This document shows, one piece after another, positions 29,878-46,324 of a stretch of 64,000 nt of DNA. Each line of letters starts with the position of its first letter. The first letter of the stretch is position 1. The DNA is from Myxococcota bacterium. Its GTDB lineage: Bacteria > Myxococcota_A > UBA9160 > JAFDDA01. A model generated the notes under the pieces. The model searched no databases, had not been told where the DNA came from, and saw only the letters and a program-made list of their open reading frames with translations. The stretch spans positions 4,160,001-4,224,000 of the forward strand of contig OZ245817.1 of assembly GCA_965228475.1 (NCBI GenBank), in the 5' to 3' direction. The position numbers were made by a program, and so were the translations under genes.

Positions 29878-32800
29878 CTAGAACGTCCGGCGGAAGATCA
29901 CCCAGAGCTCGTCCTTCTCGCGCACGGCGTTCAGGCGGGTGAAGCGCTCGCTCTGGTAGGTCTGGTTGGACTCGCCGGCCGCACCGAGGCCGATCGGGAT
30001 CCGCCAGGCGGCGCCCGGCCCGTAGAAGTGGCTCATCCCGATGGTGACCGTGAAGTTCGCCGTGTAGCGGTACCGCAGGTCGAGGGCGACGGCGCCGGAC
30101 TCGGACTTCACGTCGTAGACGAAGGTCGCGCTCGGCACGAGGCGGTCCTGCAGGAAGCCCGTCTCGACGGTGAACACGCCGAGTGCGGTGAAGGGCCCGT
30201 CGACGGCGAAGCCGCGGTGCCGATCGTCCGGCCCCCGCCCGACGTAGTCCGGGATGTACTCCATGAACCACTGCATGTTGAAGAAGAACGTGCGCTCGCG
30301 GTTCAGGAAGCGGATGAAGGTCGGGCGATCGATCGAGACCGTCAGGGCCAGGAGGTCGCTGTCGCTGCGCAGCGACGGCACCTCGCTGTTCACGAAGTCC
30401 TTGCTGGCGGTCCAGGTGAACTCGACGCCCCAGTTGGTGGCGGTGACGTCCTCCGCGAAGTCCACCGCGAAGCCGAGCGTGTTGACCTTCTCGTACTCGA
30501 GCACCACCTCGCCCGCCGCCGCCCAGGCGAAGTCGCGCCGGCCGTAGGCGCCGTTGCCCCCGGCGCGGAGCTCGGGGCGCGTCACCTGGGTCACGGAGAA
30601 GAAGTCCTGCACCGTGGGACAGTTGATCGGCGCGGTGGGGTCGACCGTGCCGCCGGCCGGGGCCACGTCGGGGAAGAAGCACGGAAGCGGCACGCCCGTC
30701 CCCACGTCGAGGGCCACCACGAACTGGAGCGCGTTCACGGAGAAGGCCTCGAGCTCGCTGCGGTACGGAAGCCCGGTCACGGGGTTCAGACCCGCGGGCG
30801 GTGTGCCGTCGACGAGCGGGGTGTAGCCCGGGTCGCCCGGCCCGCGCGCGCCAGGCAGGATGACGGTCTGGCCGTTCACGAAGCGCGTCGCGGTGGGGGA
30901 ACCGGGCGTGCGGCCCGGCCAGGCCTGGAAGACGACGCTCGCCTCGGCGTTGAACAGGTCGATGCCATCACGGTCGCAGTCGCTGCCGAAGTACGGCCCG
31001 CAGCCGAGGAGCGCCTCCTGCTGGACCGTGAGCACGTCGCGCAGGCCGCGGCCGACGTTGCCCACCGCCGGTGCGGACTGCACCGTGAACGGGCTGTCGT
31101 TCGCGAAGCTCTGGTTGACGTTGGCGATGCCGGGCAGGAACGGCGCCGGGAGGGGCGCCGGCGTCACGCAGTCCGCCAGGAAGGCATCGCAGGCGTCGAA
31201 GTTGAGCGGTGTCACGGCGAAGGGAGAACCGGCGAGCCCGGCCAGGATGCCCGACGCATCGGTATTCCCGGCGGCCGTCGCGCTGATGATGTGACGCAGC
31301 TGGACCGCCTGGAGGAGCGTCGCGAAGTCCGGCAGCGTCGCGAGCTGGGTCTTGGCGAGCGAGTTGGTGATGGTCAGCGCGCACACGGACGGATCGAGCG
31401 TGAAGAACGCCACGCTCGAGGCGCAGATCACGTCGTAGATCTGCCTGTTCTGGGGCGAGTGGGCCAGCGCGTTGTTCTCGCCCGAGGTCCCGGGCCGGAG
31501 GCACCAACGCTCGGCGCCCGTTTCGCACCGGGCATCCGGCGGTGCCAGCGCGGCAAGGGGCCGGCCGGAGTCCGGGTCCACCCGCCGCTGGTAGCGGTTG
31601 AAGATGCGCGGCAGCGCCGTGTCCTCGTAGTGCCAGAAGTCGGTGATCGCGAAGCTGAAGCGGTCCCAGCGAAACTCGAGCCGCGCGCCGATCTCGACGC
31701 CCGAGAGGTCCTCCCACCAGTTCGGCGGACGGCGCTCCCCCGCGAGCCCGATGCCGAGCACGGCGTGCTCGAAGACCCCGAAGCTCTTGTCGCAAACCGG
31801 AAGCGGCGCGTACGGCTCGCCGCAGCGGCCGACGTCGTGGGGCTCGAAGTCGTCCATCATCCAGGCGATCTCGAGCCGCACGTCGTCCAGGGGCCCGACG
31901 TTCCAGAAGGACCAGATGGCGCGCATGGACCAGAGCGGAATGCGCGATTGCTCGAGGTCCGGCAGGGTCACGAGCGCGAGGTCGCTCGGGTTGAACTGGT
32001 CCATGTTCCGGAAGAGCTCGGTCTTGCCCCAGATGATGGTCTGCTTGCCGAGGCGCAGGAACAGGCGCGAATCGAACAGGTTCAGATCGACGTAGGCCTC
32101 GCGCAGCACGTACTCGTCCTGGCTCGCGCCGAAGTTCCACTCGAGCTCGCTCTGGGTGAAGTTCTGGTCGTAGCGGTCGAGGTTGTGCTTCGCGTCGAGG
32201 CGGCGGAAGGCGGCCGAGGGGTTGAACAGACCCCGCCCGACGCGCGTGGAGTCCGTGTACTGGATCCCGCCGGCGGGAACGGCGGGGCGGAAGGGCAGCC
32301 CCGGGCTCGACTGGTTCGCGACCGAGGCCAGCAGCCCGACGTTGGTGATCCGGTCCTTGGGCCGCCACATCAGGATCGTGGCGTCGGCACCCGAGGCATC
32401 GCCGCCCGAGGTGGTGAAGGCGTCCTGCTTGATGGCGAAGCGGTAGTCGAGCAGCGGCGCGAAGGCCGTGTTGAAGGAGAAGTTCGGCCCGAGGATCTCG
32501 AAGGGCGGCGTGTCGGCGATGCCGACCAGCCGGCTCGTGCGCTCCCGCGGCGTGTCGAAGGGCAGGAAGCGTCCGGGGCCATCCGGGGTCGCCGGGTCTG
32601 CGTCCTCGAGGAACAGGTTCGCCGCGGGCGTCTGGTGGTACGGATCGCCCGGGTTCACCGGGTTGAGCAGCGGGTCGTCGCCGACGAAACCGTTGCGCTT
32701 GCCGTCGCGGTAGCGCGAGGGGATCCCCTTGGCCCGGTCGCCGTAGGTGTCGGCGGAGGGGAAGACGCCGCAGCCGCGCCGCCACACGCAGTCGTAGCTG

Positions 32801-33081
32801 GCCTCGATGCGGAAGAAGACCGAGGCGTCGTCGAAGATCGAGATGGGCTCGTCGAAGAGCGTCACCTCGGCTTCGAGCTGGAGGATGTGCTTCCACTGGG
32901 ACAGATCCCACTCGTGGCGGAAGTCCTGGTTCAGGGTCCGGAACTGCATCTCGTAGGCGCCGTGGATCTCGACCCGGCCGTCGGCCAGCTCGATGGCACC
33001 CGAAGGGAAGCTCGCGAGGAGCGACGCTCCCAACGAGAGGACGCCGAAGCCACGCCCGAAGTCGAAGTCGCGCGAACCCAT
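29878..33081 (-). CDS. Large DUF1302-like outer-membrane protein
   Basis: Signal peptide, LREAYVD...LRLGKQTIIWGKTE..R..D.FNP, amphipathic C-terminal strands ending in Phe, Cys-rich inserts. Confidence 0.75.
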   Translation of the reverse strand: MGSRDFDFGRGFGVLSLGASLLASFPSGAIELADGRVEIHGAYEMQFRTLNQDFRHEWDLSQWKHILQLEAEVTLFDEPISIFDDASVFFRIEASYDCVWRRGCGVFPSADTYGDRAKGIPSRYRDGKRNGFVGDDPLLNPVNPGDPYHQTPAANLFLEDADPATPDGPGRFLPFDTPRERTSRLVGIADTPPFEILGPNFSFNTAFAPLLDYRFAIKQDAFTTSGGDASGADATILMWRPKDRITNVGLLASVANQSSPGLPFRPAVPAGGIQYTDSTRVGRGLFNPSAAFRRLDAKHNLDRYDQNFTQSELEWNFGASQDEYVLREAYVDLNLFDSRLFLRLGKQTIIWGKTELFRNMDQFNPSDLALVTLPDLEQSRIPLWSMRAIWSFWNVGPLDDVRLEIAWMMDDFEPHDVGRCGEPYAPLPVCDKSFGVFEHAVLGIGLAGERRPPNWWEDLSGVEIGARLEFRWDRFSFAITDFWHYEDTALPRIFNRYQRRVDPDSGRPLAALAPPDARCETGAERWCLRPGTSGENNALAHSPQNRQIYDVICASSVAFFTLDPSVCALTITNSLAKTQLATLPDFATLLQAVQLRHIISATAAGNTDASGILAGLAGSPFAVTPLNFDACDAFLADCVTPAPLPAPFLPGIANVNQSFANDSPFTVQSAPAVGNVGRGLRDVLTVQQEALLGCGPYFGSDCDRDGIDLFNAEASVVFQAWPGRTPGSPTATRFVNGQTVILPGARGPGDPGYTPLVDGTPPAGLNPVTGLPYRSELEAFSVNALQFVVALDVGTGVPLPCFFPDVAPAGGTVDPTAPINCPTVQDFFSVTQVTRPELRAGGNGAYGRRDFAWAAAGEVVLEYEKVNTLGFAVDFAEDVTATNWGVEFTWTASKDFVNSEVPSLRSDSDLLALTVSIDRPTFIRFLNRERTFFFNMQWFMEYIPDYVGRGPDDRHRGFAVDGPFTALGVFTVETGFLQDRLVPSATFVYDVKSESGAVALDLRYRYTANFTVTIGMSHFYGPGAAWRIPIGLGAAGESNQTYQSERFTRLNAVREKDELWVIFRRTF

Positions 33082-33316
33082 ACCGCTCCTCCCGCCTCGC
33101 CCCCTGCGAGACGAAAGTGCAAGCGTCGTGCCCGGGCTCGGGTTGCGCTGTTCGTACGGAGCCCTGCCTGCCGCCCCACGCCGGGGCGGCGTGTCACGTC
33201 ATGCGAGCTATTTCGTCACGCTGCAGTGTCGCAGGTGCACCGTGCGCACGATGGCGCCGCCGCGAGGCGCTGGGATAGATTCAAGCCAGATCGAGAAGAC
33301 CCGGAGTCGCCAAGCC

Positions 33317-36215: not shown

Positions 36216-37022
36216 TCAGGAGCTCCGGCGACGCACGATCGCGGCGACGCCCAGCGTCGCGATCAGGGCCAGCACCGACGGCTCGGGAACCGCCTCGGAG
36301 TTCAGCGCCTCGCCCTCCCAGGTGAGGCCGCCGAACAGCGCGACGCCGAAGGCGCTGAAATCGACCGGGCTGCTGGCGGCGCCGGTCACCGGATCCACCA
36401 CGTACACCGAATTGCCGTAGGTCCCGTACAGGACCCCGTCGCTCCCTGTGGCGAGCCCGTAGACGTCCGGGATGCCGAAGCTGCCGACGAGGCTCGACGC
36501 GCCGGGGTTCGCCGGGTCCATCTGCACCAGGCGATCCGGGTCGCCCGAGAGCACCGGCTGGGCGGCCAGCAGGAGCTCACCCTGATGGAAGGTGAGGTCT
36601 CCCGAGGAGCTGAACGCGCTCAGACCGATCGAGGTCGCCTGGTTCGTGCCGCCGAGATCGACGGTGTACAGGTTGTTGTCGTTCCAGGCCGCCCCGTACA
36701 GCACCCCGCTGGCGTCGAAGGTGATCGCGTTCAGATCGTTCCCCATCGGGCCGAGCCAGGTCACCGCAGCGGTGCTGGTGTTGATGACGTAGAGGTCGTC
36801 GTTCCCGACACCGTAGAGCGTGCCGTCCGGCGCGAAGGCGATGTCCCAGATCGTGACGCCCATGGACCCGACGACCGTCGCCGTCCCCGCCCCTACGTCG
36901 AGGCGCGAGAGCTGACCCGCACCGTCCGACGCCCACAGGATGGGCGCCGCCTCCGCCGGTCGCGCGAACACCAGCGCGATGGCCAGCGCGAACCAGCGAA
37001 GGGCCGGGCTCGGGCGCTTCAT
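36216..37022 (-). CDS. PEP-CTERM surface protein (beta-propeller-like repeats)
   Basis: Signal peptide, [16 protein letters not shown] repeats, VPEPS-TM-RRRSS. Confidence 0.88.
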
Positions 37023-38542
37023 CGGGCCGCCCGCCCGCGGCCGGCGCGCACGGCCAGCAGCAACGCGCCGAGACCGAGCAACGCCGCGCTGCCGGGCTCG
37101 GGCACCGCCGCCTCGAAGACCGTGACGCTCCAGTTGTCGTAGTCGGCAACGAAGTCGAGCAGCGCACCGCCGTTGTTCCCCGAGTTCGCGATCTTGAAGC
37201 CGAAGGTCATGCTCGCGCCACCGGCCGAGAAGTCGAGCGGCGGCTCGCCACCGGTGCCGAAGGGCACGGTGAACTGGTTGGCCGTGAGCACGGGCGACGT
37301 CAGCCGCTCCCAGCGTCCGCGGATCCCGCTGAAGCCGAAGGAGACCGAGTAGCGCGTACCGCCCTGGAGGATGTAGCCGCTGACCTCCTGGCCCTGGGAA
37401 CCGCCGCCGAACTGCGGGAAGGCGCGCGCGTCGATGCTGAACTGCACACCGGAGACGGCGCCGTCGGTGCCCGGGTCCCAGGTCGCCAGGGAGTTCTCGA
37501 GGAAGACCTGGACGTTCGAGAGCGTGTCGAGCGTGGTCGTGACCTCGAAGTACGGGTCCGGGTTGGTCCCGCTGCTCCCGCCGGTGGCCACGATCGTCGA
37601 GCTCCCGGTCGAGGCGTGGCCGGGGACCGTCTCGAAGCTCGTCGACCAGTGGGGACCGAAGTCCTGGTCTTCGAAGATCGTCGCGGCCGTGGCGGGCGCC
37701 GCGAGGAACGATCCGGCAAGCACGGCCACGAGGGCGCCCCGCCGACTCTTCCGCCGAAGCGAACCGCCCAACGCGAGCACGGCGAACCCACCCAGCAGCG
37801 CGATCGGAGACGGCTCCGGAACGGCGATCAGGTTGATCGTGGCGGTCGACGTGCGCGAGAAGAAAACGCCGATGGAGGAGCCGTCGGAGAGCGTTCCGAC
37901 GATCGTGCCGTTCGGATCGCTGATCGCGCCGAAGGCCCGGTTGAAGCTCGTGCCGTAGATGTTGATCACGGCATCGTTGGCAGCCTTGAGGTCGGTCCCC
38001 ACCCCGAAGGCTCCGCCGAAGATGTCGATCGTGCCGTTGGCCGAGGCGGTGACGAGCGAAGAGTCGATCGAGCCGCCGGTGATGGTTGCCGAGCCGGTGT
38101 CGAACACCGTGATCAGGTCGTCGATCACGCCGCCGGAGACGTCGAGCGTAGAGTTCCCGGCGACCTCGAGCGTGCCCGAGACCGTGCCGCCGGAGATCGA
38201 AGCCGAGGAGTCGTCTTCGAGGAAGATCTCGAAGGCGTCCCCGCCGTCGATCACGAGTTCGGAGTCGTCGAACATGAGGAAGAAGCCACCGGCCTGGCCG
38301 GACCCGAGCAGACGGATCAGCGCCGTGTCGTTGCCGTCGGCGCTGTCGATGACGCCACCGCTCACGATGTCGACCTGGGCCGTGCCCGAAGCGAAGACGT
38401 CATCGGGACTGATGGCGGTGGAAACGATGTGGAGTCCACTCGAGACCGTGAGGGCATGGGAGTTGGCTGCCGGAAGCAACACGAAGGCGGCAGCGAGGCA
38501 CGCCAGCGGGAGCGAGCGGCGGAGCGTGGTGAGTGAGGACAT
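37019..38542 (-). CDS. Tandem double PEP-CTERM protein (two passenger domains, two VPEP anchors)
   Basis: ATG 38542 after AGGAG. Internal VPEP at 37811-37822 and terminal VPEP at 37094-37105, with no stop between them. Confidence 0.85.
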   Translation of the reverse strand: MSSLTTLRRSLPLACLAAAFVLLPAANSHALTVSSGLHIVSTAISPDDVFASGTAQVDIVSGGVIDSADGNDTALIRLLGSGQAGGFFLMFDDSELVIDGGDAFEIFLEDDSSASISGGTVSGTLEVAGNSTLDVSGGVIDDLITVFDTGSATITGGSIDSSLVTASANGTIDIFGGAFGVGTDLKAANDAVINIYGTSFNRAFGAISDPNGTIVGTLSDGSSIGVFFSRTSTATINLIAVPEPSPIALLGGFAVLALGGSLRRKSRRGALVAVLAGSFLAAPATAATIFEDQDFGPHWSTSFETVPGHASTGSSTIVATGGSSGTNPDPYFEVTTTLDTLSNVQVFLENSLATWDPGTDGAVSGVQFSIDARAFPQFGGGSQGQEVSGYILQGGTRYSVSFGFSGIRGRWERLTSPVLTANQFTVPFGTGGEPPLDFSAGGASMTFGFKIANSGNNGGALLDFVADYDNWSVTVFEAAVPEPGSAALLGLGALLLAVRAGRGRAAR

Positions 38543-38649
38543 GATCGATTCTCCTGACGGATCGGGGGTCAGACCCGGCCGGGCCGGGCCCTGCGCGAGG
38601 CCAGCCGGTGCCGGCCCCGCGCGGTGGAAGAAAGAAAGGGTGGAAACCC

Positions 38650-39435
38650 TCAGCACTGGCCGCCGCCGCGGCGGCCGCGGCCGAACCAGGCGAGACCGAG
38701 CAAGCCGCTGGTCAGCAGCGCCAGGGAGCCCGGCTCCGGCACGGCCAGCCCGATGCTCGAGGGGAAGCCACCGAAGGCCGTGAGGTCCGCGATGTCGCCG
38801 TACTCGAACATGTAGAGCTCGGCTTCGCTCGCGCCCTGGTTCGAATCACCGAAGGCCGCGATGCCGTTCACCGGCGAGCCGGGGCCGTTGACCGCGAAGC
38901 CGCTGAGGACTGTGGTCCCATCGATGATCAGATCGGCGATGGGATTGCCGCCGTTGTCGTCGGTGACGACGCGGTAGTGGTGGAAGTTGCCGTCCGTGAC
39001 GTTGAACACGACGGTGTTGCCGTTCACGATCAGCTTGTCTTCGTCGAAGCCGATCGTGACACCGACGTTCGTGTCCGCGATCGCGGCGTAGTAGCCCTGG
39101 CTTCCGTTGGCCCCGTCCGTCGAGGACGTGAGCCGAAGGCCGATCTCCATGTAGTAGTCGCCGGTGGTGAAGTCACCGCCGGGGACGAAGGAGCCGGTCC
39201 ACCACAACTGGTCCGAGGTCGTCGTGACCGTGTGATAGGTGTCGTTCACCATCTGGGCCGTACTCGAGCCCGTGGTGCCGCCACCGGGGAACCAACCGTA
39301 GGTGCCGGGGTCGACGTCCACACCGCCGAACCAGATGTCGTTGTCGGCCAGGTAGTTGAATGAAGCGGCCGAGGCCGGGCCCGCCGCCGACAGCCCGACG
39401 AGGGCGGCGGCCAGGCAGAAGATGCGAAGTCGCAT
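38650..39435 (-). CDS. PEP-CTERM surface protein
   Basis: AAGGAG RBS, signal MRLRIFCLAAALVG...ASA, VPEPGS-TM-RGRR. Confidence 0.88.
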   Translation of the reverse strand: MRLRIFCLAAALVGLSAAGPASAASFNYLADNDIWFGGVDVDPGTYGWFPGGGTTGSSTAQMVNDTYHTVTTTSDQLWWTGSFVPGGDFTTGDYYMEIGLRLTSSTDGANGSQGYYAAIADTNVGVTIGFDEDKLIVNGNTVVFNVTDGNFHHYRVVTDDNGGNPIADLIIDGTTVLSGFAVNGPGSPVNGIAAFGDSNQGASEAELYMFEYGDIADLTAFGGFPSSIGLAVPEPGSLALLTSGLLGLAWFGRGRRGGGQC

Positions 39436-39528
39436 TGGGGTTCTCCTTCTCACGGGAAGGAGGAACAGCCCATCAGCGCGCCGGCGTCGCATCGACACCG
39501 GCGGCCCCTTCCCATGGCTCTGGGGAAG

Positions 39529-39544
39529 TGCAAGCACGGTGCCA
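39529..39544 (-). promoter_or_regulatory. Sigma54 -24/-12 promoter for the PEP-CTERM cluster
   Basis: TGGCAC-CGTGC-TTGCA, an exact consensus match about 95 bp upstream of ATG 39435. Confidence 0.85.
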
Positions 39545-39547
39545 AAA

Positions 39548-39683
39548 ATGATCAGACGGTTACGTGATCAGATGATCCTATTTTCGCTGGGGTTTTCGCG
39601 GGGCGCCCACAGGCCGAGCCAGCGAAGGGCCCGCGGATGGGAAGGAGAGTTCCGTTATTGGGAAAACCTGTTCGCATGATCAG
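39548..39683. promoter_or_regulatory. Three TGATC-N4-GATCA-type palindromic sites
   Basis: ATGATCAGACGGTTAC (39548), GTGATCAGATGATCCT (39564), CTGTTCGCATGATCAG (39668). Confidence 0.7.
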
Positions 39684-39723
39684 GTCGGGGGCGCCGCCCG
39701 AATCCCGACCGCGGGACCCAGAC

Positions 39724-40410
39724 CTAGGAGCCGGAAGGCTCGGAGCCCGGCCCGGCCCCGGCGGGCGCCGCGGCGATCCGCGCCATCACCGACTCGAAGT
39801 GGTGTAGCGGGAGGTTCATGTCCATCGGGGTCCCGAGATCGAGCATTCGGACGTGCAGCGCGAACAGGCCGATCTCGATCATCTCCCAGGCCACGCGCAC
39901 GACGTCGATGTCCGCGCGGAACTCGCCCGCCTCGATCCCGTCCCGCAGCGTGGAAACGAGCAGATCCTCGAAGCGCGAGAGGGTCCGTTGGATCTCGCCG
40001 CGAATCATCGAATCTTGGGTGGCCTCGCCCATCAGGATGACGACCAGGTCGTCACCGCGCCGACGCTCTTTGCGAAGCTGCAGGGAGGCGAGCATCCGGA
40101 GCTTCATGGTCGCGGTGGCGTTGGCATCGTTCGCGAGACGCTCGGTCTCTTCGAGCAGCAATTCGTGCGCCCACTTCACCACGGCGCGCACCAAGTCGTC
40201 GCGAGTGCCGTAGATGCGGAAGATGTTGGCTGCCGAGCAGCCGGCGCGCTCGCCGACGGCGCGGACGCCCACGGACTGCACGGAACCCCGTGCAATGGCT
40301 TCCTCGACGAAAGCCATGATGACGACCTCTTGGCGCTCTTCCGCGGGCATCCGGGTGAAGGAGCGCTTCGGGGCGCGACGCACGTCTGTGCCGTCTTCGA
40401 GCGTCGCCAC
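39724..40410 (-). CDS. TetR/AcrR family transcriptional regulator
   Basis: RMPAEERQE..., VRAVGERAGCSAANIFRIYGTRDDL HTH, GIEAGEFRADID. GGAGGGGAG RBS. Confidence 0.88.
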   Translation of the reverse strand: MATLEDGTDVRRAPKRSFTRMPAEERQEVVIMAFVEEAIARGSVQSVGVRAVGERAGCSAANIFRIYGTRDDLVRAVVKWAHELLLEETERLANDANATATMKLRMLASLQLRKERRRGDDLVVILMGEATQDSMIRGEIQRTLSRFEDLLVSTLRDGIEAGEFRADIDVVRVAWEMIEIGLFALHVRMLDLGTPMDMNLPLHHFESVMARIAAAPAGAGPGSEPSGS

Positions 40411-40852
40411 GAACTCCCCTCCAGGTCAGCGTTGGCCCCGGCGCGAACCGGTCGGCGCGTTCCTTGCGCCTCCTTGAAAGTAACATGCTTGAGGGGGCGT
40501 GTATCGGCGGACTGGGGAGAGAGCGAAGGTTTGAACTCCAGCGACGCACTGTGACAGGTCGACCCGTTCGAATCGCCGTACGCCGGTACTTGCAGCGGGA
40601 CGTCGCTTCCTCGAACGGGCGAAACAGTTGCGCCTGCACCTTCGATGAACGAAGGCGTCCTGCGCGAACCGCGGAAGCCGGATACCCGCTTCGTTTTCGT
40701 CGATTCGGGTGGCGCATAACGGCGGGCTCGGAGTCCCTCCTCCGAAGCCGAGGTCCGAACACCATGAAGGGCGCTGGGCACGGCCTGCCCGGAGCGCGGG
40801 GCTCCGCCCGGACTTTCGTCGGGCCGGCCGGGATCCTCGAGACGCATCAGAT

Positions 40853-40936
40853 ATGATCGAGTGGTCATGTTTAAGGACTCCGGAGATCTGCTGCGCCCCG
40901 GACAAACATGATCGAATGATCATGTTTGTCCGGGGC
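40853..40936. promoter_or_regulatory. Two palindromic sites, the second within a perfect 19-bp-arm inverted repeat (operator and/or terminator)
   Basis: ATGATCGAGTGGTCAT (40853); GCCCCGGACAAACATGATC-GAAT-GATCATGTTTGTCCGGGGC (40895-40936). Confidence 0.7.
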
Positions 40937-40994
40937 AGACGTTGAGGCTCACCCGGGGTCGTTCACCCGGGCCTGGGGCTCGTTGGGGAGGCGA

Positions 40995-43118
40995 TCAGGG
41001 GGTCAGATCGAAGAAGAGCGACAGCGAGTCGCCCGCACGGGCGGACTCCAGGTGGTCGAGGGTGATCCCGGCCAGGGTCGGCAGGCCGAAGCTCTGCAGG
41101 GAGTCGGCCAGGACCGGCAGGATGTCGGACTCGAGGAAGCCGGGCCCGCCCGAGACCCCATTCAGGAGCGCCTCCACGAGCGACGTGGTGACGGGGAGGA
41201 CCGGGTTCGCGTTCGGGAAGTTCGTGAAGAGCGCCGTCGCCGCTCCCGCCGGCACACCGCAATCGGCGGGCGGGCAATAGACCAGATCGAAGTCGATGGC
41301 GTCGGCGACCGGGTCGTAGGACATGTTGATGCCGGCATCCACCGAGATCCGGAGGCTCGTGAGCGTGGTGGGCAGGCCGCCGGGAACCGGCTGCTGCAGC
41401 TCGAAGCCCAGACCGCGGATGGCGAGCTGGGCCATGGAACCCGAAGGGAAGGGAAGACCCGTGACCACCGGCGGCGTCGTCGCGTAGTAGGCGAGCCGCA
41501 CGGGATCCGTCGGCGCGAGCCCGGTGATGAACAAGGCCGTCGGGTTGCCCGCGAACAGACAGTCCGCCGTCAGCGTCGGGTCGTTCCCGTTCTGCGGCGT
41601 CGCGCACTGGTCGAGCTCTTCGATGTAGCCACCCAACGCGCCCTGAGCGGTGAGCACGCGCAGGATCTGGCCGAAGAAGGGTTCGGTCATGCCGAGCCCG
41701 AGACCGAAGGGCAGACCGCCCGGCGTCGTGGTGATGGCGGCCGGGATTCCGGGAAGCGAGAACGGCGTATTGTAGGAAGCCGGGCCGGGATCGGGGCAGA
41801 AGTAGGGCGGCAGGGTCAGATCGAGGTCGCAAGCCGTCGGCGCGGTGACGACGGGCGCCGTTCGCACGAGGTAGAGGATCCCGTCGTCGTCCTCGGTGAT
41901 CGACGTGAACTCCGCGTTCAGGTCCGCGCCGAGACTCTGACCGACGCCCTGCCCGATCTGGAGGTCCGCCAGAGCGACCTCGACGGCCTCCTCGATCAGC
42001 GGCCGATTCGCGGCGTCCCCGTCGAGCGCGTCGACGAACTGCGCCTCCGCATCGGCCTGGAACTGCGGGCTCACCACGTTCGCGAGCGCCGGCGCGAGGC
42101 CGGTGTTGGCGCAGATCGTGTCCGGCGTGGTGATGACGAGGTTGAAGCTCTGGAGGTCCGCAACGACCTGCGTCTGGCTGACGGCGACGTTTGCCCCGGC
42201 CGGGGTCTGGTCGAGATAGCTGCGCAGGATCAGCGGATTGCCCTGCATGTAGCCCTCGCAGTAGACCGTTCCGAAGATCCCCTGGGAGGGGTCGGGTTCG
42301 ATGTCCCAGACGACGAAGTCGATGCGGAAGCTCGGGATCTCCACGATCACCTCGGTCACCGAGGGCGTCGGGCTCGCCGCGCCGTGGGCGTCGAGCGCGA
42401 CGGTGAGCGGCCCGTGGGTCAGGCCGGTGACGTAGCCGTCGAGCAGGGGGAAGCCCGGAACGGAGGGCAGCACGTCCTCCTGGTCGAGGATCTGCTCGGG
42501 GAATCCGTTCGGTGCCACCTGCGCGGGGATGTCGACGTTGGCCAGCAGGTTCGCCGCGAGCGTGTCGACGAGCGCGTCGAAGCCACCTTGCTCGTTCACG
42601 CGAAGCTCGACGCCCGGGTCGGCGAAGACGCTCCAGACGCCGGCCTGCCAACCGGACACGACCGTGACCGCCTTTCGCCGGAACGGCCGCGGCGAGAGCG
42701 TCGGCGCTCCGTAGAAGGCTTCGATGTAGATCGTGTTGATCGCCTCGTGCGCGCCCGTGCTCGCGGTGCGCGCGTCGATGTCGATCTCGACGGAGAACGC
42801 GCCGGTCACGGGATCGATCACGACCGGAACCCCCGACATGGCGCCGGCGCCGCCGGCGTAGGCGTCGGCGAGCTCCTGGTTCAGGTACGCGTGGGCCTCG
42901 ATGTCGGCGATCGTCCCGACGTTGCCGGCGACGACCTGCCCCGTGACCAGGAGCAGGTTCGCGGAGGCGGTCGGACCGAGGTCGTGATAGTGGTTGTCCG
43001 TAGGTGACTGAATGATCAGGTTCGGTTGCCCGACGCAGCTGGGGCCCAGGTTGGCGACTCCCGTGATCAGCAAGGCCAGCACGACCCAATGACGATTCCC
43101 CACGTTCAAACCCTCCAT
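40995..43118 (-). CDS. Large lipoprotein, BPI/LBP (TULIP)-like; paralog of 43288..45345
   Basis: Signal ending LGPS-C, DPGVELRVNEQGGFDAL, C-terminal SFGLPTLAGITL...LSLFFDL. Fold is inferred. Confidence 0.65.
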   Translation of the reverse strand: MEGLNVGNRHWVVLALLITGVANLGPSCVGQPNLIIQSPTDNHYHDLGPTASANLLLVTGQVVAGNVGTIADIEAHAYLNQELADAYAGGAGAMSGVPVVIDPVTGAFSVEIDIDARTASTGAHEAINTIYIEAFYGAPTLSPRPFRRKAVTVVSGWQAGVWSVFADPGVELRVNEQGGFDALVDTLAANLLANVDIPAQVAPNGFPEQILDQEDVLPSVPGFPLLDGYVTGLTHGPLTVALDAHGAASPTPSVTEVIVEIPSFRIDFVVWDIEPDPSQGIFGTVYCEGYMQGNPLILRSYLDQTPAGANVAVSQTQVVADLQSFNLVITTPDTICANTGLAPALANVVSPQFQADAEAQFVDALDGDAANRPLIEEAVEVALADLQIGQGVGQSLGADLNAEFTSITEDDDGILYLVRTAPVVTAPTACDLDLTLPPYFCPDPGPASYNTPFSLPGIPAAITTTPGGLPFGLGLGMTEPFFGQILRVLTAQGALGGYIEELDQCATPQNGNDPTLTADCLFAGNPTALFITGLAPTDPVRLAYYATTPPVVTGLPFPSGSMAQLAIRGLGFELQQPVPGGLPTTLTSLRISVDAGINMSYDPVADAIDFDLVYCPPADCGVPAGAATALFTNFPNANPVLPVTTSLVEALLNGVSGGPGFLESDILPVLADSLQSFGLPTLAGITLDHLESARAGDSLSLFFDLTP

Positions 43119-43190
43119 GGAGCCACGAATCGGCGCAGCTCTCGGTCCCGGAGCATCCTGGGGCAGCCGCCCCGGCGATGTCCAGAAAAA

Positions 43191-43261
43191 GTGACCAAGT
43201 GATCATACAATATGTTCACATGGTCATGTAGAGATGGTATTGCTGTTGGCGCACACGTTGG
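43191..43261. promoter_or_regulatory. Two palindromic sites plus a sigma54-like element in the divergent intergenic region
   Basis: GTGACCAAGTGATCAT (43191), ATGTTCACATGGTCAT (43212), and TGGCGC-ACACG-TTGG (43247-43261, + strand, imperfect -12). Confidence 0.6.
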
Positions 43262-43287
43262 GGATGCCCCCCGGGGAGACGTGAAAC

Positions 43288-45345
43288 ATGCGAAGGATCG
43301 TCGTTCTTTGGGCCGGCCTGGTATTCGCCGCCACGCTGGGGCCCGCCTGCTCGAGCAACCCGAAGGTCAGCATCACCTCCCATCAGGACGGCGACTTCCA
43401 CTTCGTCATCGAGGACGGCGGGACGATCGAGCTCTCGGGCATCTACAAGAACCTGGGTCTCGATGCATCGCTGTGCGTCTGGACGAACGAGATCCAGGTC
43501 GGCGCCCCCTGCCCCATCGCCGTGGTTCGCAACCTCACGACCAAGACGTGGACCGCTTCGATCCCGGTGCCGTTCCCCTTCGGCGGGCCCGACTCCCCGC
43601 TCGCACCGCTGCTCCCGGTCTTCGTGACGGCGAACTACGGAAGCGGAGGCTCGCTCCAGGTGCGCGACCACGTTGCCCTGAACCTCGCCTTCGACGTCGC
43701 GAGCAATCACGGAACGGGCCGGGACGAAGCGATCGTCATGCGGCTCTCGCAGCAGGGGCTCGGATCGATCGCGTCCTTCGTCGCCGATCAGGCCGGCCAG
43801 GCGCTCGACCTCTCGGCGCTCGTCGGCACGCCCTTCCTCTCCGAGTGCGTGAAGGACTTCACCATCCTCGGCGTCACCTACTGCTACATCGAGATGGTCT
43901 CGGCGGAGATCTACGCAATCGAAGCTCCCTCGGCGCCCTCGATCAATCTCACCTCGATGCCCGGTGCGGTGCGCGCCAATTTCTCGCTCTCGGATCTCGA
44001 GTTCACCGCCAAGTTCACGTTCCGCTTCCGCGCTCCGCTACCGACGGCGATCTGGTCTCCGCCGATGACCTGCTTCTACGACGCGGAGCCGGCCCTCACG
44101 ATGACCCACGTCGACCTCGACCTCCTGCCGAACCCGAGCGATCCGCGCTTCGTCGCCGCCACCCAGCTCAACGATCCGACGGCCACGATCTTCGCCTACA
44201 CGGACAAGGTCACCTCCTGCAACAACGGCCTGAGCGGCGTGCTCGCCGAGCTACTCGACTTCATCGAGGAGACGAACGAGCTGATCGGGTCCACGCAGAT
44301 CGAGGCGGCCCTCGAATCCAAACTCAGCGTCGCCGGAGGGGCACCCATCGCCGGTGCCGTCGAGACGGCGCTCGCGGACGTCCAGCTGAGCGCCAACCTC
44401 GAGCAGATGCTCGACATGGATCTCGCCGGAACGGTCTCGGACGTTCAGGAAGACTCCGGCGGCATCACTGCGACCTTCGCGATCCACCCGCAGCCCACCG
44501 ACACGCAGTGCTCGCTCGGCAACCTTCCCGCGTGGGCGTGCCCGGACTTCGCGCCGGAAAGCTACATGTGGCCCATCTCCGATCCGGACGACTGGGATAC
44601 GGTGATCGCGCCGACTCCCTACGATCTCCTCCTGGGCCTCAATGCCAACGCGTTGAACCCGCTGCTCGGCGCCCTGGCGGAGCAGGGCGGACTCTCCTCG
44701 GGTCCGATCACGGAGCTCGACTCCTGCAACTACACACCGCCGCCGAACGGCCCCGGCTTCCCGCCGCACGGACCCGAACTCGATGTCGGCTGCCTCGTCG
44801 GGTACAACCCGCTCGCGTGCGCCGTGCTCGGCTACCCCTGCGACAAGGCGCTGCAGATCCGTGTCGTCCCGAGCAACAAGCCGGTGGTGCGGCCGAACAC
44901 GACGATGTTCGACGAGAACGGCGATCCGGCCCAGGCGAGCCTCGTCCTGCAGCTCCGGATCGAGGTCTGGGAGCGCGACACCGTGAACGACAAGCTGCTC
45001 GTGCAGCTTTACGCGAGTTTCGAGGCCGGCCTGAGCCTCGAGGTGGACACCGACACCGGCGAACTCGGTTTCGATCTCTTCGTGTGCGAAGACACGAACC
45101 CCTTCTGCACCTCGCCCATCCGGATGCAGACCACGATCAGCACGATGCCCGAGACGTCGATCGTCGCGAGCTTGATCGACGTCTTCCTGGGAGGCGGCGG
45201 CGGCTTCTTGAACGGGACGCTGAACGACTCGCTCCAGAACGCGGTCGTGTCGTTCCCCCTGCCGACGATCCTCGGTCTGACGCCCAGCGCGATCACCACG
45301 CTCGAGCATGAGCAGTACCTCTCGCTGTTCACGAATCTCCAGTAG
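43288..45345 (+). CDS. Large lipoprotein, BPI/LBP (TULIP)-like; paralog of 40995..43118
   Basis: Signal ending LGPA-C, AIVMRLSQQGLGSIA, C-terminal SFPLPTILGLTP...EQYLSLFTNL. Fold is inferred. Confidence 0.65.
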   Translation: MRRIVVLWAGLVFAATLGPACSSNPKVSITSHQDGDFHFVIEDGGTIELSGIYKNLGLDASLCVWTNEIQVGAPCPIAVVRNLTTKTWTASIPVPFPFGGPDSPLAPLLPVFVTANYGSGGSLQVRDHVALNLAFDVASNHGTGRDEAIVMRLSQQGLGSIASFVADQAGQALDLSALVGTPFLSECVKDFTILGVTYCYIEMVSAEIYAIEAPSAPSINLTSMPGAVRANFSLSDLEFTAKFTFRFRAPLPTAIWSPPMTCFYDAEPALTMTHVDLDLLPNPSDPRFVAATQLNDPTATIFAYTDKVTSCNNGLSGVLAELLDFIEETNELIGSTQIEAALESKLSVAGGAPIAGAVETALADVQLSANLEQMLDMDLAGTVSDVQEDSGGITATFAIHPQPTDTQCSLGNLPAWACPDFAPESYMWPISDPDDWDTVIAPTPYDLLLGLNANALNPLLGALAEQGGLSSGPITELDSCNYTPPPNGPGFPPHGPELDVGCLVGYNPLACAVLGYPCDKALQIRVVPSNKPVVRPNTTMFDENGDPAQASLVLQLRIEVWERDTVNDKLLVQLYASFEAGLSLEVDTDTGELGFDLFVCEDTNPFCTSPIRMQTTISTMPETSIVASLIDVFLGGGGGFLNGTLNDSLQNAVVSFPLPTILGLTPSAITTLEHEQYLSLFTNLQ

Positions 45346-45348
45346 AAC

Positions 45349-45502
45349 CTGATCGAGTGAACATCTTTTCCCTTTTTGAGCATCGGCTTGCTTCGGGCTG
45401 CCAGAGGTTCGACTGTCCCGCGGGGCGCAGCATCGATTTCCTGTTCATCTACGGGATCTTGCAAAATATGATCAGATGATCCTGTTTGGCACTCGGGTTG
45501 CA
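45349..45502 (+). promoter_or_regulatory. Sigma54 promoter with distal and proximal palindromic sites
   Basis: CTGATCGAGTGAACAT (45349), ATGATCAGATGATCCT (45468), TGGCAC-TCGGG-TTGCA (45487-45502). Confidence 0.85.
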
Positions 45503-45595
45503 CTCCGTCCCGGCAGGGGAGGCCGCCCCACGGCGGACTTCCCCGCCTCGCGCCGCCAGAGAGCGCGGGGCCATCCATCCTGGGAAGGAGAAACC

Positions 45596-46324
45596 ATGCG
45601 AACCCGAACGGGCGCTCGCTGGGCCGGGCTCGCCGCATGCGCGGCGTTCCTGATGGCGACGCCGGCTTCCGCCGGCACGATCATCTCGGCACCGACGACG
45701 AGCTCGCCCCACCTGACCATCACGTTCGACCAGGTCACGACGCCGGCCCCCGACAACGACGACGTCGTCTTGTCGCCGAACTTCGTCGGCATCAACGCGG
45801 ATTGGAGCGGCGGGGTCAGCCCGCAGATCCAGTACTTCGACTTCGACGTCCAGACGCCGACGGCAACCCCCGGTGGCTCCGCCTCCGAGAGCACCGAGTA
45901 CGACGTCCGGCTCACGATCCAGAACCTGGGCTCCGCCACCTGGAACGGCTTCGAGGTGAGCTTGCTCGGCGACCTGGCCCAGGTGGGCCTCGGCGGCACG
46001 ATCGCCTGGGACTCCGCCCTGAACCCGACACTCGAGGGCCCGGGAGACTCCTCCCCGCCCTTCTCGAACAGCCTGCCGACGGTGGCGCTGGTCGGCGGGA
46101 CGCTCGTGTTCACCGGCGCCACGATCGACCCGGGACAGCTCGTGAAGGTCACCATCGCCATGGACCTCGAGACCGTCGTCAACAGCTACACGACCGCGGG
46201 GCCGGTCTCGGACGTGATGACGCTCGGCGTCGGCGTCCGACCGCTCGCCGTCCCCGAGCCGGCCCTTGCGGCCCTGGTCGGATGCATGGCGCTCGCCAGC
46301 GTCCTCTGGGCCCGGCGCCGCTAG
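45596..46324 (+). CDS. PEP-CTERM surface protein
   Basis: AAGGAG RBS, signal ending PASA, VPEPAL-TM-RRR. Confidence 0.88.
   Translation: MRTRTGARWAGLAACAAFLMATPASAGTIISAPTTSSPHLTITFDQVTTPAPDNDDVVLSPNFVGINADWSGGVSPQIQYFDFDVQTPTATPGGSASESTEYDVRLTIQNLGSATWNGFEVSLLGDLAQVGLGGTIAWDSALNPTLEGPGDSSPPFSNSLPTVALVGGTLVFTGATIDPGQLVKVTIAMDLETVVNSYTTAGPVSDVMTLGVGVRPLAVPEPALAALVGCMALASVLWARRR

Follow-up and report, generated by a model that had tools for sequence, protein, structure and literature searches.

The window analyzed here, a 64,000-nucleotide stretch from the genome of a Myxococcota bacterium (contig OZ245817.1, positions 4,160,001 to 4,224,000), contains a gene cluster in which a 16-bp palindrome with the core TGATC-N4-GATCA is repeated in the intergenic regions surrounding a gene for a TetR-family regulator. 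The genome consists of a single contig of 5.0 Mb, with a G+C content of 70.5%, and is 96% complete. The regulator gene (tetR) lies beside two divergently transcribed lipoprotein genes, and the cluster is bounded on each side by a PEP-CTERM transcription unit behind an outward-facing sigma-54 promoter. Coordinates are those of the window unless given as genome positions, and the genes of the cluster are as follows:

36216..39435, minus strand: three-gene PEP-CTERM operon (genes 38650-39435, 37019-38656 and 36216-37022) behind the left sigma-54 promoter
39724..40410, minus strand: TetR-family regulator gene, 228 amino acids, GTG start, ribosome-binding site GGAGGGGAG; assigned by Pfam and a clade profile
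40995..43118, minus strand: lipoprotein 1, 707 amino acids, a paralog of lipoprotein 2 by sequence comparison
43288..45345, plus strand: lipoprotein 2, 685 amino acids, with an N-terminal immunoglobulin-like domain and a probable BPI/LBP/CETP-like part
45596..46324, plus strand: single-gene PEP-CTERM unit, 242 amino acids, C-terminus VPEP...RRR in the translation; weak match to NCBIfam NF038129 (22.2 bits, where the cut-off is 65)

The palindrome copies, which have no strand, are listed below together with the promoters and the putative upstream activator sites (UAS1, UAS2), for which the position of TTTTCC is counted from the TGGCAC of the promoter:

39529..39544, minus strand: left sigma-54 promoter, TGGCACCGTGCTTGCA, a perfect match
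39548..39563: proximal palindrome copy of the left promoter, a weak one with two mismatches in the core, separated by 3 bp from TGGCAC
39564..39579: strong palindrome copy (one core mismatch) abutting the weak left one, 16 bp further upstream
39639..39653, minus strand: putative UAS2 of the left promoter, GGAACTCTCCTTCCC, a second activator-type palindrome of the GGAA-N6-TTCC type that recurs at further promoters of the regulon
39660..39675, minus strand: putative UAS1 of the left promoter, GCGAACAGGTTTTCCC, TTTTCC at -122
39668..39683: distal palindrome copy, left (one core mismatch), overlapping the left half of UAS1
40853..40868: palindrome copy (one core mismatch) within the non-coding spacer of 584 bp that precedes tetR
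40896..40935: 40-bp perfect palindrome with 18-bp arms and a 4-nucleotide center, in the middle of which lies the only perfect copy of the 16-bp site (40908-40923, no core mismatch)
43004..43023: possible tenth copy, inside the lipoprotein 1 coding region about 95 bp past the start codon, ranking 12th to 13th genome-wide
43191..43206 and 43212..43227: two palindrome copies (one and two core mismatches, respectively) in the 169-bp intergenic region of the divergent lipoprotein genes, flanking a TACAAT hexamer
45349..45364: distal palindrome copy, right (one core mismatch), overlapping the left half of UAS1
45357..45372, plus strand: putative UAS1 of the right promoter, GTGAACATCTTTTCCC, TTTTCC at -121
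45468..45483: proximal palindrome copy of the right promoter (one core mismatch), ending 3 bp from TGGCAC
45487..45502, plus strand: right sigma-54 promoter, TGGCACTCGGGTTGCA, a perfect match

All nine established copies fall within four intergenic regions of this one cluster, and each was re-located at the position and in the intergenic setting claimed for it in a preliminary description of the window. Their alignment, expressed as a count matrix, extends the consensus to 20 bp, ACATGATC-N4-GATCATGT. At low stringency the number of matches is that expected by chance (21 in the whole window with two or fewer mismatches versus 20.55 expected), and 12 of the 21 are concentrated in 39549-45482. 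With one mismatch or none, the 6-kb locus accounts for seven of the eight matches in the window and for seven of the 46 in the genome; the Poisson probability of at least seven sites in the locus is 2.8e-13 (lambda 0.055). Because this value is built on the genome's own empirical rate of such sites, it already allows for the 3.1-fold over-representation of GATC in the genome (42,471 found versus 13,557 expected). The remaining 39 genomic sites are dispersed, 22 of them inside a crude coding mask.

Cross-validation led to the same result. Position matrices were trained on one subset of the sites and the held-out sites were ranked among approximately 5 million genome positions. A matrix derived from the copies at 40853, 40908, 43191 and 43212 placed the five copies at the sigma-54 promoters 4th (45468), 6th (39564), 7th (45349), 8th (39668) and 9th (39548) genome-wide, and a matrix derived from four promoter copies placed 40908 first, 43212 4th and 40853 7th, with the weakest pair, 39548 and 43191, at 14th and 15th. 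Outside the locus, the top matrix matches in the whole genome are weaker, single and heterogeneous, and none of them clusters. The palindrome is confined to the locus, and nothing of comparable score is present elsewhere in the genome. The preliminary description had named GATC bias as the finding that would undo its motif; placement, Poisson probability and the cross-validated matrices all show more than such a bias. The DNA of the locus was identical, with no variants, in three sequencing runs from two studies, which excludes an assembly error and nothing more.

The two outward promoters are perfect instances of TGGCAC-N5-TTGCA and conform to the sigma-54 consensus (-24 GG / -12 GC). A scan of the window at one mismatch or fewer returned three sigma-54 matches against 0.59 expected, a number reached in none of 100 shuffles, and the genome as a whole contains 22 perfect matches, with about 3 expected by an estimate from base composition. 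One rpoN gene is present in the genome (214.7 bits). These promoters had been reported in the preliminary description as perfect and outward-pointing, each with a palindrome 3 bp before TGGCAC, and both were found again in this form, the left proximal copy being the weakest of the nine. The proximal palindrome covers approximately -45 to -30; on the left, the core of the stronger neighboring copy at 39564 is the reverse complement of the proximal core of the right promoter (45468). A site adjoining the -24 element occurs at the two local promoters only, among the sigma-54 promoters compared. Outside the palindrome and activator blocks the two promoter regions have diverged, which points to selection on the blocks rather than to recent duplication. 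The two promoter loops also share a GC-rich match of 10 bp, which by our own estimate is compatible with chance.

The distal elements begin 139 bp upstream on the left and 138 bp upstream on the right, in agreement with the preliminary description, and have the common sequence ACCTGATC-N4-GAACA-N2-TTTTCCC. They had been described as further copies of the palindrome. This is so for one part, since the local palindrome is present as TGATC-N4-GAACA, while the GAACA-N2-3-TTTTCCC part is a separate element, UAS1, that recurs throughout the genome. The distal site is thus a composite in which the local palindrome and the UAS1 of a wider regulon overlap by 6-8 bp. Other sigma-54 promoters of PEP-CTERM genes have in common the element GGAAM-N3-4-TTTTCCC, a palindrome of the GGGAAA...TTTCCC type, and a second GGAA-N6-TTCC often follows it at the promoters of the regulon. 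The hexamer TTTTCC is rare, with 399 occurrences in the genome counted on both strands; of 85 candidate sigma-54 promoters, 12 have it at -160 to -80, where 0.27 would be expected, and eight have it at -113 to -127 from TGGCAC, the two local ones included. The full element stands before at least eight sigma-54 promoters, most of which belong to PEP-CTERM genes, and a matrix built from seven non-local promoters ranked the local copies 12th (right) and 17th (left) among approximately 10 million positions. It is very probably the binding site of an enhancer-binding protein.

Among nine aligned activator sites, TGATC precedes the element at a fixed offset at the two local promoters only, for which the chance at exactly this offset in both is estimated at 1e-5 or less when base composition and the GATC excess are allowed for. 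Two of the other aligned promoters have AGACC at this place (AGACCGAG/C in place of TGATCGAG). The protein that recognizes UAS1 would be encoded at a distance. Three consecutive GGGAA-N6-TTCCC palindromes lie at genome positions 1192917-1192975, about 200 bp upstream of a gene for an NtrC-type response regulator (1193182 onwards), and this regulator, possibly controlling its own gene, is a candidate for the protein that activates the PEP-CTERM sigma-54 regulon. The family cut-off of PrsR (TIGR02915) was not reached in the genome, the best score being 418.5 bits against 502.6.

The protein that binds the nine-copy palindrome must be sought separately. Four of the nine sites have no detectable sigma-54 promoter, even when three mismatches are allowed at a sensible orientation, so that the binding factor is not tied to sigma-54 and an enhancer-binding protein is disfavored. 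This candidate, offered in the preliminary description, is likewise unsupported by the sequence of the actual activator motif, which differs from the palindrome. The description had posed the TetR protein and an enhancer-binding protein as alternatives; both are likely to act here, the latter at TTTTCCC and a second, local factor at the palindrome. Its proposal that one factor controls the whole locus holds insofar as a single local factor with a locus-confined regulon fits the sites, and fails at the distal element, where TTTTCCC would be bound by another protein.

Several observations point to the embedded TetR as the local factor. In the part of the window from about 29.9 to 56.5 kb, no other DNA-binding or regulator gene was found, and none of the approximately 21 enhancer-binding proteins of the genome is encoded in the window. 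The TetR protein contains the C-terminal ligand-binding or dimerization domain TetR_C_13 (Pfam, 34.6 bits versus a cut-off of 27), and the profile of its clade aligns, from about position 10, with 90 TetR-family sequences of the PDB (best E = 1.1e-11), the nearest solved relatives being fatty-acid- or steroid-responsive TetR proteins, e.g., FadR and KstR. The clade is tiny: of 1.84 billion representative proteins, nine match at E <= 1e-10. A 16-20-bp inverted repeat that is duplicated in a divergent intergenic region by the regulator gene is the classic layout of TetR-family systems such as TetR/tetO and QacR. The two sites in the divergent lipoprotein region, with centers 21 bp apart, and the sites before tetR reproduce this textbook layout and support the assignment, as does the fact that the whole genomic distribution of the motif, nine sites in four intergenic regions and none elsewhere, surrounds a single regulator gene and that this gene is of the TetR family. 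The palindromes are therefore probably operators of the TetR encoded at 39724-40410, which would repress tetR itself, the lipoprotein pair and both sigma-54-dependent PEP-CTERM units.

A regulator encoded elsewhere might instead bind the palindrome, with tetR merely one of its targets. Adjacency is the only link between the TetR protein and the sites, its helix-turn-helix domain (Pfam TetR_N) scores 20.7 bits, under the cut-off of 24, and the genome encodes many regulators besides its approximately 21 enhancer-binding proteins. On such a reading, however, it would be an odd coincidence that within 5 Mb all the sites that can be detected are grouped around tetR; the best matches elsewhere form no cluster that could mark a wider regulon, and the motif by which an enhancer-binding protein would recognize these promoters is a different sequence. 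This explanation is unlikely, though not negligible.

With the TetR protein as the binding factor, a mechanism can be outlined. The ligand-free repressor would occupy the two operators between the divergent lipoprotein genes and the two ahead of tetR, the latter leading to autoregulation. Since at each promoter the left half of UAS1 lies within the distal operator, repressor and enhancer-binding protein should compete for the 6-8 bp that they share, and repressor on a proximal operator, 3 bp from the -24 element, would hinder formation of the closed complex or contact between the activator and sigma-54. The two promoters belong to a genome-wide PEP-CTERM regulon, which an NtrC-type activator encoded elsewhere would turn on and upon which the TetR protein would impose a local veto. 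Such control would amount to an AND gate, in which the PEP-CTERM genes fire on condition that the global activator is active and that the ligand of TetR is present, releasing the local repressor. It is possible, though proposed here with reservation, that the arrangement constitutes a natural two-input enhancer in which TetR locks both ends of the loop by means of the UAS1-fused and the -24-abutting operators, perhaps bridged to each other, such that two members of the regulon require both signals.

As to the ligand, a reasonable guess would be a hydrophobic molecule or a lipid akin to what the lipoproteins carry, given the lipid-responsive nearest relatives of the regulator and the weak evidence of a BPI-type domain in the lipoproteins, which also have an N-terminal immunoglobulin-like domain. 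When the profile of the lipoprotein family was compared with the PDB, BPI (1bp1, 1ewf) was the only match (E = 0.005). Pfam recognized Glucodextran_B in 6 of 11 members of the family and LBP_BPI_CETP_C in 3 of 11 (best E = 0.0028); lipoprotein 2 of the window itself had no Pfam match, and its AlphaFold2 model was poor (pLDDT confidence score 52).

The preliminary description remarked that TetR control of sigma-54 promoters would be unusual, which is a fair remark, though a precedent exists in LuxR, a TetR-type protein that binds the sigma-54/LuxO-dependent qrr2-4 promoters of Vibrio harveyi according to the portion of the report that concerns these promoters (PMC2680268). As there, a TetR-family protein would here be part of a natural sigma-54 enhancer beside sites for an enhancer-binding protein. 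LuxR activates qrr2-4 directly from sites beside the LuxO sites, and the distal palindrome is placed right beside the activator site, so that the TetR protein might act positively or architecturally at the sigma-54 promoters while still repressing the lipoprotein genes. The geometry argues otherwise. LuxR is a global activator whose sites, as given in that portion of the report, flank those of LuxO without overlap and in no case abut -24 (PMC2680268), whereas the distal operator overlaps the activator half-site rather than flanking it, and a protein 3 bp from -24 should, judging from sigma-54 promoter geometry, hinder the holoenzyme or its contact with the activator. Nearly all characterized TetR proteins, moreover, repress. 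A role as co-activator is accordingly quite improbable.

Two further explanations attribute the palindrome to something other than a dedicated regulator. The paired GATC sequences might form a methylation-dependent phase-variation switch for surface proteins of the pap/agn43 type, given that each site holds one or two GATC, that the targets encode surface or secreted proteins and that the distal-proximal distance of about 104-120 bp recalls pap; the prospect is very remote, since the 96%-complete genome gave no match to the D12-class Dam-type methyltransferases (PF02086; other methyltransferase families were not searched), the conserved positions run well past GATC, to ACATGATC...GATCATGT, and GATC is about as dense in the four intergenic regions as in the genome at large. 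That the copies are inert, left behind by a small repeat or by the duplication of promoters, as might be supposed from the ancestry that two sites share, through their promoters, with other PEP-CTERM promoters and from the occurrence of AGACCGAG/C at the place of TGATCGAG in two of the latter, is scarcely credible, because the palindrome alone is shared among copies whose flanks are unrelated and because the copies fill all four intergenic regions at promoter-relevant positions and lie nowhere else.

Repression by the embedded TetR must also be weighed against several observations that do not favor it, besides the subthreshold helix-turn-helix score. Simple scans of 39300-45700 recognized no sigma-70-type promoter and no intrinsic terminator, so that overlap of the operators with lipoprotein or tetR promoters is only presumed. 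The operators on the tetR side lie 443-513 bp upstream of its start codon, which is unusually far. Both distal operators carry a mismatch in the right half, GAACA for GATCA, and affinity there may be low. Looping between distal and proximal operators, an option in the preliminary description, would be possible in principle, but is unsupported, as the distances between centers, 119 bp for the right promoter and 104 or 120 bp for the left one, keep no consistent helical phase. Coupling of the palindrome with sigma-54 promoters and PEP-CTERM genes appears to be unique to this locus and is known from one genome; a paralogous locus in the same genome has neither sigma-54 promoters nor PEP-CTERM genes adjoining it. 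Searches of 40 relatives, of species-representative genomes and of a metagenome collection turned up no orthologous locus, and none of the RNA runs searched contained the locus.

The proposed operator set resembles the TetR/tetO and QacR-type systems in having a TetR-family gene embedded among its targets and 16-20-bp inverted-repeat operators that are duplicated in a divergent region and also occur ahead of the regulator gene. It differs from them in the number of operators, nine to ten in four regions, two of which are sigma-54 promoters with overlap of UAS1 and abutment of -24; in its targets, which are surface or lipid-binding proteins instead of an efflux pump; and in the very small size of its TetR clade. 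To our knowledge, sigma-54 promoters are usually described as being under activators only, natural cases with a dedicated repressor are few, and the logic of such control has mostly been explored with synthetic enhancers bearing TetR sites.

That sigma-54 controls PEP-CTERM genes through an upstream activator motif, tied to PrsR, was already described by Haft et al. (2006). The parts of that paper that deal with the PrsK/PrsR/PrsT system describe a -24/-12 promoter and an activator motif before PEP-CTERM genes, most of which stand singly behind large upstream regions and have leaders of about 70-85 nucleotides, features shared with the present system (PMC1569441). The motif itself differs, being GGAAM-N3-4-TTTTCCC about 105 bp before the promoter here and, in those parts of the paper, a 17-nucleotide sequence that ends in TTTACA and is separated from the promoter by a spacer of about 63 nucleotides (PMC1569441). 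The sequence TTTACA was absent from the 200 bp upstream of both local promoters. Further differences from the system as there described are the local operator superimposed on the enhancer and the host, a member of Myxococcota and not a proteobacterium (PMC1569441). Synthetic sigma-54 enhancers with TetR sites do repress (Brunwasser-Meirom et al., 2016; PMC4740811): in the experiments covered by the relevant sections of that study, TetR bound near or between the activator site and the sigma-54 promoter lowers output and serves as a ligand-controlled second input. Those enhancers are engineered cassettes with the sites inside the loop, where they act by excluded volume, unlike the natural arrangement here with sites at both ends of the loop (PMC4740811).

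Full-text searches of the literature yielded no description of a TetR repressor at PEP-CTERM genes or over an activator site, and a search by title or abstract for repressors that overlap activator sites yielded no such case. A TetR operator set and a sigma-54/PEP-CTERM enhancer are each of a known kind; their superposition, i.e., the fusion of an operator with an activator half-site together with an operator that abuts -24, is one of which we found no description and appears new. If the proposed repression is true, the locus is a compact natural example of a repressed sigma-54 enhancer with precisely defined composite and -24-adjoining operators. Single members of a large PEP-CTERM surface-protein regulon could then be put under an extra, local signal, and an uncharacterized pair of BPI-like lipoproteins would be linked to that signal.

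A second locus of the genome (genome positions 1527812-1532822) contains, in this order, a TetR paralog with 32-34% identity, a lipoprotein 1-like gene and a lipoprotein 2-like gene. Conservation of the gene order suggests that the TetR clade is tied to these lipoprotein pairs. Beside a lipoprotein start in this locus lies one perfect GATATC-N4-GATATC, the sole perfect one in the genome, which has the same 5-N4-5 geometry and a different sequence; having no further copies, it may serve as a lead and is not evidence. The intergenic region of the divergent lipoprotein pair of the second locus is very AT-rich, and a further divergent lipoprotein pair is found at genome positions 1016700-1020963, where there is no TetR paralog.

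Outside this genome, relatives of the locus are scarce. With lipoprotein 2 as the query, the 40 relatives gave weak matches only (best E = 2.2e-9). TetR homologs with 36-38% identity are present in two relatives and have no lipoprotein neighbor, motif or sigma-54 promoter beside them. A search with TetR returned only the protein itself among 5.8 billion proteins and 58 pattern matches among genome contigs, none of them a relative, and lipoprotein 2 gave 28 pattern matches among metagenome contigs, again with no relatives. The perfect 20-bp palindrome occurs in at least 121 metagenomic loci; among the matches listed, none encodes a relative of a protein of the locus, and most are low-GC tandem repeats of 8 bp or single chance sites.

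The spacer between lipoprotein 1 and tetR has features of its own. Open reading frames in 40411-40994 were ruled out as genes, with G+C at third codon positions (GC3) of 0.58-0.80 in all frames versus 0.87-0.94 in genes. As minus-strand RNA, 40896-40935 has a predicted folding energy of -39.6 kcal/mol (z = -7.0), and since this 40-bp palindrome lies 60 bp past the lipoprotein 1 stop codon it may, from the predicted fold, double as an RNA hairpin or as a terminator without a U-tract. A search of Rfam with the hairpin gave a sub-threshold microRNA match only. The contigs of one run break at 40896-40935. The counterpart gap in the second locus is much shorter, with about 125 bp separating the stop codon of the lipoprotein gene from the start of the match with the TetR paralog, and contains a GC-rich hairpin.

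A third near-consensus sigma-54 promoter, GGGCACGACGCTTGCA, with one mismatch, is located at 33118-33133 on the minus strand, 37 bp before the ATG of the following gene:

29878..33081, minus strand: DUF1302 protein gene, 1067 amino acids, downstream of the promoter at 33118-33133

The genome combines its 3.1-fold GATC excess with zero Dam-type (PF02086) matches.

In the left PEP-CTERM operon the three open reading frames overlap by a few bases, and all three have PEP-CTERM matches in Pfam, together with NCBIfam TIGR02595; the GC3 of the first gene is 0.91. The second (37019-38656, minus strand, 545 amino acids) has two PEP-CTERM-like segments, one internal (approximately residues 271-299) and one terminal, and may have arisen when two PEP-CTERM genes fused. 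The genes beyond the right unit, glyoxalase and GGDEF, converge on it. Leaders of 83-84 nucleotides are predicted from the promoters of the two local units, and the purine blocks before the ATG of both genes are alike, GAGAAGGAGAACC at 39436-39460 and GGGAAGGAGAAACC at 45575-45598. Blocks resembling GGGAAGG are also found in other leaders of the PEP-CTERM regulon.

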